A stretch of DNA of 64,000 bases from the NCBI RefSeq assembly GCF_053078305.1, contig NZ_CP166879.1. One strand, written 5' to 3'. The position numbers and the translations under genes were made by a program. Each line of letters starts with the position of its first letter. Position 1 is the stretch's first letter. The notes beneath the pieces were generated by a model that worked only from the letters and a program-made list of their open reading frames with translations, was not told the origin of the DNA and ran no database searches. Of the stretch, positions 30,780 to 37,216 are shown in pieces.

Positions 30780-31736
30780 ATGTCATACCCGCTTTTTGAT
30801 AAAGACGAACACTGGCATAAGCCAGAGCAGGCGTTTCTCACCGATGACCACCGGACCATTCTGCGCTTCGCCGTAGAGGCGCTAATGTCCGGTAAAGGAG
30901 CGGTGCTGGTGACGCTGGTGGAGATACGCGGCGGCGCGGCGCGCCCGCTCGGGGCGCAGATGGTGGTGCGCGAAGATGGTCGTTACTGCGGTTTTGTCTC
31001 TGGCGGCTGCGTGGAGGCCGCTGCCGCTTTTGAAGCGCTGGAGATGATGGGCTCAGGCCGCGATCGCGAAATTCGCTATGGCGAAGGTTCGCCGTGGTTT
31101 GACATCGTTCTGCCCTGCGGCGGTGGGATCACGCTGACGCTCCATAAACTACGCTCGGCACAGCCTCTGCTCGCCGTGCTGAACCGCCTGGAACAGAGAA
31201 AACCGGCGGGGCTGCGCTACGATCCGCAAGCACAATCGCTGGTGTGTCTGCCCACGCAAACCCGGACGGGCTGGAATCTCAATGGCTTTGAGGTGGGGTT
31301 CAGGCCATGCGTCAGGCTGATGATTTACGGACGTTCTCTTGAGGCGCAGGCAACCGCGAGTCTTGCAGCAGCCACAGGCTATGACAGCCATATCTTCGAT
31401 CTTTTTCCGGCCTCAGCCAGCGCTCAGATCGATACCGATACGGCGGTCATTTTGCTGTGCCATGATCTCAACCGAGAGCTGCCAGTGTTGCAGGCCGCGC
31501 GAGAGGCAAAACCCTTTTATCTCGGCGCATTGGGCAGCTATCGAACCCACACGTTACGTCTGCAAAAGCTCCACGAGCTGGGATGGTCCAGGGAGGAGAC
31601 AGCGCAAATCCGGGCACCCGTCGGGATATTTCCCAAAGCCCGGGATGCGCATACTCTGGCACTCTCCGTGCTGGCAGAAGTCGCCTCTGTACGTCTCCAT
31701 CAGGAGGAGGATTCATACCTGCCCCCGTCGTCCTGA
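30780..31736 (+). CDS. paoD: PaoD, XdhC-like molybdenum cofactor insertion chaperone
   Basis: 318 aa XdhC/CoxI family. Confidence 0.85.
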   Translation: MSYPLFDKDEHWHKPEQAFLTDDHRTILRFAVEALMSGKGAVLVTLVEIRGGAARPLGAQMVVREDGRYCGFVSGGCVEAAAAFEALEMMGSGRDREIRYGEGSPWFDIVLPCGGGITLTLHKLRSAQPLLAVLNRLEQRKPAGLRYDPQAQSLVCLPTQTRTGWNLNGFEVGFRPCVRLMIYGRSLEAQATASLAAATGYDSHIFDLFPASASAQIDTDTAVILLCHDLNRELPVLQAAREAKPFYLGALGSYRTHTLRLQKLHELGWSREETAQIRAPVGIFPKARDAHTLALSVLAEVASVRLHQEEDSYLPPSS

Positions 31737-31914
31737 TCCTTGCGGCCGGGCGTGGGAAGCGCTTTCTCACCTCCGGGGGAAATACCATAAATTAAGAGAA
31801 AAATCTGCAGTAGCCGTTTTAGAAAATCACCTAAATCGTTTAAAAGAGCGCCCTACCCATAGTGGGTGCTCATCGCCTTGTGTAACTTATTCAGCAACGC
31901 GCGCCCTCGCCGGA

Positions 31915-33108
31915 CTAAAGCGCACCGGCCTTCTGGCGTGCGGTAACAAAGGTCAGTACGCCCGCGCAAAGGAGCAGCACACTACTCATGGCAAACGTAC
32001 TCTGCCAGCCAAGGCGGTCAAACACGATGCCTCCTGCCGTTGATCCAAGGGCGATTGAGAGCTGAATCACCGCGACCATGAGCCCGCCTCCGGCTTCGGC
32101 GTTGTCAGGCAACGTACGCGCAATCCATGTCCACCATCCGGTTGGCGCGGCGGTGGCCAGCATGCCCCAGAGTCCTAACAGCAGCGAGACCGTCCAGACG
32201 TGATGCCCGGTAAGCATCAGACCGATGGCAATGACGGCCATCAGTCCGGGTATGGCCATCAGCGTGGGGTAGAATTTTCTGTTGAGAAATGTCGAAACAA
32301 CCAGCGTGCCAATAAAACCGGCCACGCCGATAATCAGCAAAATCAACGACAAGCCTAAGGAATTAACCCGTGTCACCGACTCCAGAAACGGGCGCACATA
32401 GGTGAATAGCGCAAACTGCCCCATGAAAAACAGGCCACAAGCTATCATGCCGACCACAACCATGCGGCGGCTAAATAAGCGGAATACCGCGCCACATGAC
32501 GTGTGGCTTTTATTCGCATCCATGCTGGGCAGACTAATGCACTGCCAGATAAAGGCGACAACCGCCATGGGCACCAGGCACAAGAAAGCGCCTCGCCATC
32601 CGACCGTAGCCCCCAGATAGCTTCCCAGCGGCGCGGCCACGACCGTCGCCAGCGCATTACCGGCGTTGAAAATCGCCAGCGCACGCGTGACCTGATGCTG
32701 CGGCACCAGACGAATCGCCGTTGCCGCTGACATCGACCAGAATCCGCCAATGGCCACACCAATCATCGCACGACCGACCATATACATCAGATAACTGGTA
32801 GCCAGCGCAATAATAAGCCCCGATACGGCCATCAGAACCGTCATCCCCAGCAGCAGGAACTTACGATTCATCTTTCCAGCTAGCGTTGAAAGCGTCAGGC
32901 TGGTCAGAACCGCCAGCGCGCCGGAGATAGCAATCCCCTGCCCTGCCAGCCCCTCCGTCACGCCTAAATCGCGGGTAATCGGCGTGAGCAGGCTGACGGG
33001 CATAAATTCAGAAGCAATCAGCACAAACACGCACAGGGTCATGGCAAAAATACCGCCCCAGTATGCGCGCTGATGATGAGGTGATAGTGTTTGGCTTAGT
33101 GTCGACAT
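31915..33108 (-). CDS. MFS transporter (12-TM, sugar-efflux/drug-efflux type)
   Basis: 397 aa; ~12 hydrophobic helices, MFS loop motif GKMNRKFLLLG. Confidence 0.8.
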   Translation of the reverse strand: MSTLSQTLSPHHQRAYWGGIFAMTLCVFVLIASEFMPVSLLTPITRDLGVTEGLAGQGIAISGALAVLTSLTLSTLAGKMNRKFLLLGMTVLMAVSGLIIALATSYLMYMVGRAMIGVAIGGFWSMSAATAIRLVPQHQVTRALAIFNAGNALATVVAAPLGSYLGATVGWRGAFLCLVPMAVVAFIWQCISLPSMDANKSHTSCGAVFRLFSRRMVVVGMIACGLFFMGQFALFTYVRPFLESVTRVNSLGLSLILLIIGVAGFIGTLVVSTFLNRKFYPTLMAIPGLMAVIAIGLMLTGHHVWTVSLLLGLWGMLATAAPTGWWTWIARTLPDNAEAGGGLMVAVIQLSIALGSTAGGIVFDRLGWQSTFAMSSVLLLCAGVLTFVTARQKAGAL

Positions 33109-36536: not shown

Positions 36537-36779
36537 TCAGTTTGCAGATGCAGTGGGTCTGATGGTAATTTCGGTTGTATCAACGCTTTCGGGAGATTCA
36601 ATAATATGCCTTACCGCACGGGCAATATCCGCAGGTTGAAGTGCAACAGAACGGTAGGCGTCCATTGCCTTCATGGTTTCCACATGGGTAATGGTTGAAG
36701 CCAGTTCACTTTCGACAACGCCAGGATTTACGCAGGTCACACGGATTTTCGAGCTTTCCTGCCGTAAGCCATCAGAAAT
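36537..36779 (-). pseudogene. C-terminal fragment of a short-chain dehydrogenase/reductase
   Basis: 67-aa ORF matching only the SDR C-terminus (NPGVVESELASTITHVET ... ADIARAVRHIIESPESV); no N-terminal Rossmann part; abuts a second gene fragment. Confidence 0.55.
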
Positions 36780-36780
36780 A

Positions 36781-37216
36781 GCCCGTACTGCAAATCAGGC
36801 AGCGTGAAATGGTCGTTGCCTCTCCCTCCTATCTCGCAGCCAACAGCACACCTGTTCATCCGCGTGAACTTGTGAATCATAAGTGTATCGGCTGGCGTCA
36901 ATCCCCGGATGTTGCGCCTTATCGCTGGCCATTTGAAGAAAACGGGAGAGCTTTCGACCTTGCGATTGAACCACAGATTACGACTAATGATCTGCGTCTG
37001 ATGTTGAGGCTGGCTCTTGCCGGCGGAGGAATAACAATTGCCACTCAGGAAACTTTCAGGCCGTATATTGAAAGCGGTAAGCTTGTATCTCTGCTTGATG
37101 ACTTTCTTCCACAATTTCCGGGCTTCTATCTGTATTTCCCACAGCGTCGCAATATTGCACCAAAGCTCCGCGCCCTGATTGACCACGTCAAGGAATGGCG
37201 GCAGCAATTGGCTTAA
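36781..37216 (+). pseudogene. C-terminal fragment of a LysR-family regulator (substrate-binding domain only)
   Basis: 135-aa ORF with LysR C-terminal motif FPGFYLYFPQRRNIAPKLRALIDHV but no HTH; junction with SDR fragment near 36780. Confidence 0.55.

Follow-up and report, generated by a model that had tools for sequence, protein, structure and literature searches.

Remnant of a MobA/MocA-like nucleotidyltransferase gene overlapping the 3′ end of paoD in Escherichia coli

The window analysed here, that is, the whole 64,000-nucleotide stretch taken from contig NZ_CP166879.1 of assembly GCF_053078305.1, carries a pao gene cluster, and the site of interest lies at the 3′ end of its paoD gene. Over 1 kb around this site (31300..32300), the window was 100% identical to E. 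coli strain ES5, whose locus was annotated by PGAP as paoA, paoB, paoC and paoD on the plus strand, followed by an MFS transporter gene convergent with them and by alpha/beta-hydrolase and LysR genes. The locus adjoins the thrW/CP4-6 integration hot spot, and the paoABCD operon has been reported to end with paoD (PMC3909100). The following features were located, all positions being those of the window:

30780..31736, plus strand: paoD, intact, 318 aa, an XdhC-family Moco insertion chaperone (ORF list; Pfam XdhC_CoxI and XdhC_C; PGAP annotation of the identical ES5 locus)
31702..31710, plus strand: Shine-Dalgarno-like AGGAGGAGG, within paoD codons and 4 nt upstream of the former start codon, retained (read from the sequence)
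31715..31795, plus strand: remnant, very probably, of a paoD-linked MobA/MocA-like (NTP_transf_3) gene, 26 codons (IPAPVVLILAAGRGKRFLTSGGNTIN) plus stop (ortholog HMM, tblastn, blastn and alignments)
31715..31717, plus strand: former start codon, ATA here, which is ATG in K-12, O157, three other E. coli strains and all close intact orthologs (alignments)
31739..31765, plus strand: LAAGRGKRF codons, the family's N-terminal nucleotide-binding signature, aligning to MocA TAAGLSSRM and ortholog LAAG(R/K)GERF
31785..31786, plus strand: 1-bp deletion CCC>CC, giving ...NTIN-stop instead of ...NTHKL, common to O157:H7 and absent from K-12 and three other lineages (E. coli alignment)
31796..31813, plus strand: EKNLQ-stop, probable last five codons and stop of a downstream alpha/beta-hydrolase gene, likely the right side of the scar (position only)
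31915..33042, minus strand: MFS transporter gene, convergent with pao and the first intact gene past the scar (PGAP annotation of ES5, ORF list, 81% DNA identity to the L090 MFS gene)

The stub is read in frame +2 relative to paoD, whose stop TGA is found at 31734..31736, and it overlaps the 3′ end of that gene by 22 nt before terminating at a TAA (31793..31795). The initial annotation had reported a glycine-rich peptide, VVLILAAGRGKRFLTSGG, encoded after paoD and followed by a stop, and this peptide is indeed present on the plus strand. The interval then assigned to it, 31737..31795, was correct for the stop and displaced for the start of the peptide by about 10 nt, as VVLILAAGRGKRFLTSGG is encoded by 31727..31780, after which the frame continues with NTIN and the TAA. 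The motif AGGAGGAGG was also found preceding an ATG in L003, L090, L088 and K-12. In a 48-sequence alignment, the A, G and R of the nucleotide-binding loop were invariant, with residues A10, G12, R16 and K26 conserved across all 48 homologues, MocA included. The loop pattern (L/T)A(A/G)GxxxR(M/F)G...K is recognizable in the stub, its Lys codon having been lost through the frameshift here and kept in K-12.

A total of 80 loci with PaoD relatives were collected, taking one genome per species, and the region 3′ of paoD was inspected in them. Seventeen enterobacterial loci had an ORF of 180-211 aa starting at or just before the paoD stop, and a profile built from those 17 orthologs revealed the same gene in nine further loci, which makes at least 26 enterobacterial loci. 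Among the nine was L003, whose PaoD is 90% identical to that of the window. The N-termini of these orthologs resemble M(T/A)SPVV(L/I)ILAAG(R/K)GERFLASGG.THKL, and several rhizobial pao-type loci presented in the same place a full-length gene that is longer and more MocA-like. Translated in six frames, the window comprises 3,403 segments between stops, and of these the profile HMM of the 17 intact orthologs matched the stub segment alone (24 bits over profile positions 4-26, E=5.1e-6), the runner-up having E=1.7. Moreover, when three intact orthologs were compared to the full window by tblastn, E-values of 1.4e-8, 2.0e-7 and 3.8e-7 were obtained at 31715..31786. At the DNA level, the blastn identity of the window through paoD was 91.4% with L003 and 92.5% with L090, ending at 31794. 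L003, L088 and L090 show the very same overlap of the gene start with the paoD 3′ end, and the stub agrees with them in position, strand and frame. The comparison with pao loci retaining an intact downstream gene, which had been suggested along with the initial annotation, thus returned both orthologs and DNA homology up to 31794, and the proposed truncation of a pao accessory gene of MobA/MocA type is supported by syntenic orthologs, with the first 27 codons being orthologous. The segment 31715..31795 is therefore read, with a probability of about 0.93, as the non-functional relic of a MobA/MocA-like gene that once followed paoD and was truncated at codon ~28.

With 27 of 184 codons left, a start codon changed from ATG to ATA and a 1-bp frameshift, the copy in the window has the characteristics of a pseudogene or gene remnant. 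The lesions were read from an alignment of six E. coli lineages, where the ATG>ATA change (31715..31717) was seen only in the window/ES5; the same substitution turns PaoD residue 312, near the PaoD C-terminus, from Cys to Tyr. Once the 1-bp frameshift was repaired, the ortholog HMM score rose from 24 to 37 bits. Strains having both the ATG and the CCC present a 49-aa read-through ORF, which is called a ‘hypothetical protein’ by gene callers. Between the stub and its K-12 counterpart, ~5 of 59 positions differed, compared to ~2% in the surrounding kilobase, a small sample that suggests relaxed constraint on the sequence. Furthermore, when 5,426 complete E. coli genomes were searched by blastn with the L003 gene, not one of them retained more than the first ~81 nt of that gene, so the truncation is species-wide in that collection. 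The window's MFS-bearing arrangement appeared in only 912 complete E. coli genomes, and about three quarters of the pao-bearing E. coli genomes matched 31300..32300 only up to 31790. For 1,828 of the 5,426 genomes, 31300..32300 had no match, the paoD end being absent from about a third of the species.

The right side of the scar was approached through the Salmonella contig represented by L090/L091, in which a 5′-truncated paoD is followed by the intact transferase gene, seven cargo genes, the abhydrolase gene (plus strand), the MFS gene (minus strand) and the hydrolase gene (minus strand). The left end of the window matches L090 up to 31794 and the MFS gene from 31927, and the 7.2 kb lying between these points in L090 is absent from the window. 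Just past the junction, the window reads GAG AAA AAT CTG CAG TAG, that is, EKNLQ and a stop (31796..31813), and the abhydrolase C-termini are ...KQKNLQ in L003, ...KDKDLQ in L090 and ...KEKALQ in L093, each followed by the stop, which in L090 and L093 closely precedes the 3′ end of the same, convergent MFS gene. The match to the hydrolase 3′ end spans only ~16-20 nt and was not significant in a locus-wide Smith-Waterman shuffle, where 84 of 300 shuffles reached it, and blastn-short of the tail 31796..31915 against all loci gave only chance 11-13-mers. Position and synteny are what make EKNLQ-stop the probable remains of the abhydrolase gene. The scar would then probably have arisen from a single deletion in the E. 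coli lineage, one that began at codon ~28 of the transferase gene and spared only the final five or six codons of the abhydrolase gene; the genes between would have been lost with it, leaving the stub beside the 3′ flank of the MFS gene.

The right flank is less similar to L090 than the left one (81% vs. 92.5% identity), so the event could instead have been a replacement by foreign DNA, with an abhydrolase′-MFS-hydrolase-LysR segment recombined into codon ~28 by illegitimate insertion or replacement. Such an origin would also fit with the LysR-hydrolase-MFS module being found in unrelated contexts (L092 and L093) and inverted beside paoD in Frateuria (L028), as well as with the position of the locus next to the thrW/CP4-6 hot spot. 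However, L090 is colinear with the window, in gene order as well as orientation, and its transferase gene is intact, so a simple deletion suffices; neither mobile-element ends nor repeats were seen at the junction. A search of a plasmid collection for a closer MFS flank gave nothing outside E. coli above ~72%. Overall, a foreign replacement is held to be unlikely, although it is the most credible of the alternatives, and the internal deletion is preferred. A separate resemblance was detected between AGCC-GTTTTAGAAAAT (window 31812..31827) and AGCCGGTTTTAGAACAT in L003 (5036..5052, codons 34-39), at nearly the expected offset, with p~0.03 over the whole gene and ~0.001 under positional restriction. 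An extension of the homology to ~31827 was nevertheless set aside, the 37 bits of the HMM after frameshift repair being noted, because this stretch lies past the probable hydrolase stop and aligns partly to the L090/L093 intergenic region. The likeness is probably due to chance; otherwise, the scar would be more complex than one clean deletion.

In K-12, the remnant takes a different form. In strain DH1, the stub has its own ATG and Shine-Dalgarno sequence and runs in frame into a LysR C-terminal fragment (L002 4416..4826), the equivalents in the window being 31715..31790 joined to 36883..37216. The pentanucleotide CATAA occurs at both K-12 deletion endpoints (window 31786..31790 and 36878..36882), so K-12 has undergone a further 5,092-bp microhomology deletion. 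The fusion product is the 136-aa YagP, named in databases ‘putative LysR family substrate binding domain-containing protein’. In K-12 yagP (b0282; LysR-family fragment/pseudogene), the first 26 codons (MPAPVVLILAAGRGECFLASGGNTHK) correspond to the transferase remnant with the original ATG and are fused in frame to the LysR C-terminal ~110 residues, whereas in the window the stub terminates at its TAA, 5 kb from the LysR fragment.

Regarding its present role, the stub as read from its sequence cannot be catalytic, given that one strand and the nucleotide-binding loop are kept and the other 85% of the domain is gone, and that the conserved PADLP, GHP and DIDT blocks are missing. PaoABC obtains its MCD in trans from MocA (b2877), whose gene lies at another chromosomal site. 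The stub would simply belong to the 3′ untranslated region of the pao transcript, probably unexpressed as a protein. Scans of 31200..32300 yielded no RNA family in Rfam, no consensus terminator in the terminator/promoter scan and a z-score of 0 in RNA folding. On the minus strand of 31846..31871, an imperfect hairpin, GAGCACCC-N10-GGGCGCTC followed by TTTT, was observed 44 nt past the MFS stop; it is a plausible terminator of the MFS gene, of a stability no higher than that of shuffled sequence, and the consensus scan missed it because its loop is too long.

The stub could alternatively still be expressed as a functional small protein, either as the 49-aa ORF of the strains with ATG and CCC or as the 136-aa YagP of K-12, by means of the Shine-Dalgarno sequence and coupling to paoD. 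The retention of AGGAGGAGG and of the ATG in K-12, O157 and other lineages would agree with this, as would the prediction by gene callers of the 49-aa and 136-aa ORFs in more than 1,000 contigs each. Nevertheless, the window has an ATA start and a shifted frame, and the C-terminal continuations differ (TIN-stop, the 49-aa read-through and the LysR fusion), so that conservation does not extend past ~26 residues; the divergence of the stub from K-12, based on the small sample given above, points in the same direction of relaxed constraint. A retained protein function is thus considered very improbable. Just as improbable is the specific variant in which the 26 N-terminal residues, if translated, could contact PaoD and modulate the cofactor hand-over as a small regulatory protein; were it true, the copy in the window, with its ATA start and frameshift, would represent a secondary loss.

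The Pfam scan of the 32-aa stub peptide gave no NTP_transf_3 (PF12804) match even at E<=10, and returned only a spurious sub-threshold match to LonC_helical, since the peptide is too short; it covers only ~23 of 160 PF12804 profile positions, and the stub itself is not assigned to that family. A tblastn search with canonical E. coli MocA, also suggested with the initial annotation, failed at the site, its best match (E=0.14) being elsewhere in the window, which is due to the pao-linked proteins being only ~20% identical to MocA. The identification of the stub rests entirely on its syntenic orthologs. A fortuitous glycine-rich motif in the out-of-frame paoD 3′ end and spacer, as the shortness of the motif, the silence of Pfam and the missing MocA match might suggest, is practically ruled out by the ortholog tblastn, by the ortholog profile matching only the stub in 64 kb and six frames (E=5e-6 vs. 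1.7), by the syntenic position and frame, including the Shine-Dalgarno sequence and the ATG of other strains, and by the 91-92% DNA identity that runs 58 nt beyond the paoD stop and ends abruptly at 31794.

The relic being the preferred reading, the nature of the lost gene was judged from its intact orthologs. These matched Pfam PF12804 NTP_transf_3 with E-values of 4.7e-26 and 3.8e-24, above the 27-bit cutoff, and PF12804 was the precomputed assignment for all 120 homologues listed. Their best or second-best NCBIfam model was MocA/YgfJ TIGR03310, with scores of 83.3 and 86.8 bits that stayed under the cutoff of 186.45, as did the score of a rhizobial pao-linked protein (126.3 bits). The orthologs being below this equivalog cutoff, ‘MocA-like’ is justified and ‘MocA’ is not. 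For MobA TIGR02665 (cutoff 151.85 bits), the scores were lower than the cutoff too, with 20.3 bits for L005 and 34.7 bits for the rhizobial protein, and L007 had no match to this model at E<=0.01. The two enzymes have different specificity motifs, TAAG in MocA and LAGG in MobA, which were not used as evidence. In databases, the orthologs are named ‘nucleotidyltransferase family protein’ and occasionally ‘CTP:molybdopterin cytidylyltransferase’.

The AlphaFold model of the protein of L003, the closest ortholog, had a pLDDT of 94.1 and a pTM of 0.90. When it was compared to the PDB with Foldseek, the best matches were Rv0371c (2we9) and 3d5n (Sulfolobus), with TM scores of 0.75-0.80, followed by IspD, GlmU and MobA; against MobA 1e5k the TM score was 0.64, in line with a MobA-like alpha/beta nucleotidyltransferase fold. 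Furthermore, dN/dS values of 0.15-0.23 were found among the three closest intact orthologs, and the full-length gene is therefore maintained by selection in these relatives. The enterobacterial pao-linked transferases (L003, L005, L007 and L090) form a compact subgroup that models confidently (pLDDT 94). Compared to MocA and the rhizobial proteins, this subgroup lacks ~19 residues (MocA ~42-62; one strand-helix unit), and it has a 5-residue insert after the GxxR loop.

As to the function, PaoABC uses the MCD cofactor, which PaoD receives from MocA (PMC3909100). The ancestral gene would have encoded a MobA-like nucleotidyltransferase of ~184 aa, translationally coupled to paoD, that would have added CMP to Mo-molybdopterin to form MCD, which PaoD would then have inserted into PaoC. 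The lost gene was most probably a pao-dedicated MCD-forming transferase, with a predicted CTP:Mo-molybdopterin cytidylyltransferase activity, a role that is deduced from the family and the linkage to paoD, PaoABC being an MCD enzyme (PMC3909100).

Among the known systems, E. coli MocA (YgfJ, b2877), taken from strain MG1655, shares with the intact pao-linked proteins the NTP_transf_3 family, the (L/T)AAGxxxR(M/F) loop followed by Lys and the expected role, namely the formation of MCD for xanthine-oxidase-family enzymes and its handing to an XdhC-type chaperone like PaoD (PMC3909100). It differs from them in the low identity (~20%), in the ~19 residues (~42-62) that they lack and in their 5-residue insert after the loop; in addition, MocA is intact and encoded ~2.7 Mb away, whereas the feature described here is a 27-codon stub. 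Pairs of xdhC and mocA, in which a chaperone gene is followed by a co-transcribed MocA homologue, have been described in B. subtilis (pucA-pucB), Arthrobacter pAO1 and O. carboxidovorans (PMC2997495). The same arrangement is intact in the enterobacterial and rhizobial pao loci, unlike the E. coli pao cluster, where only the first 27 codons of the second member survive. Finally, M. tuberculosis Rv0371c (2we9), related to MobA/MocA, ranked first in the Foldseek comparison of the modelled ortholog (E=9e-12, TM 0.76) and also matched an intact ortholog in sequence; with ~20% identity and belonging to a different organism, it is uninformative on the stub, which keeps only the first strand and the loop.

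Taken as a relic, the stub is nothing out of the ordinary, coming from a gene of a known family in a known type of gene pairing, and it appears to be undocumented; no mention of the origin of yagP or of a fifth pao gene was found in the literature searched. E. coli paoABCD would once have had such a fifth gene, a MocA-like nucleotidyltransferase still under purifying selection in relatives, and its loss fits the dependence of E. coli PaoABC on the unlinked MocA. K-12 yagP, labelled only as LysR-like in databases, is explained as a fusion of the stub and a LysR fragment. Moreover, the compact MobA-like subgroup linked to pao in Enterobacter, Leclercia, Cronobacter and other genera offers candidate enzymes. 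The understanding of molybdenum cofactor biosynthesis is unchanged, and the value of the finding lies mainly in the annotation and the evolutionary history of the locus.

Other rearrangements were observed in and around this locus. A second scar is present in the window at 36537..37216, where an SDR oxidoreductase fragment (minus strand) abuts a LysR fragment (plus strand) at 36796/36797, with a ykgR fragment nearby. Both the SDR and the LysR fragments lack their N-terminus, since a divergent gene pair has here lost its two 5′ ends together with the promoter region that they shared; PGAP set pseudogene flags in this stretch. In E. coli MARGA_4 (L087 3338..4689), an IS3-family element, ISEc52, lies in the 3′ part of paoD and splits the gene, as an independent lesion at the locus.

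In Salmonella enterica (L090 1..14148 and L091), the truncated paoD and the transferase gene immediately follow a tyrosine-recombinase gene, with TraI and UvrD-like genes close by; from these neighbours, this end of the pao cluster appears to be located on an integrative or conjugative element, and thus to travel on a mobile element in Salmonella. The 92.5% DNA identity between the Salmonella L090 and E. coli sequences also suggests horizontal movement of the locus. In Frateuria defendens (L028 4958..8578), a module of LysR, PETase-like hydrolase and MFS genes lies beside a paoD homologue and is inverted with respect to E. coli, and the same module was found in unrelated contexts in two metagenomic contigs (L092 and L093). 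Judging from these arrangements, the LysR-hydrolase-MFS module seems to behave as an independent unit that has repeatedly become associated with pao.
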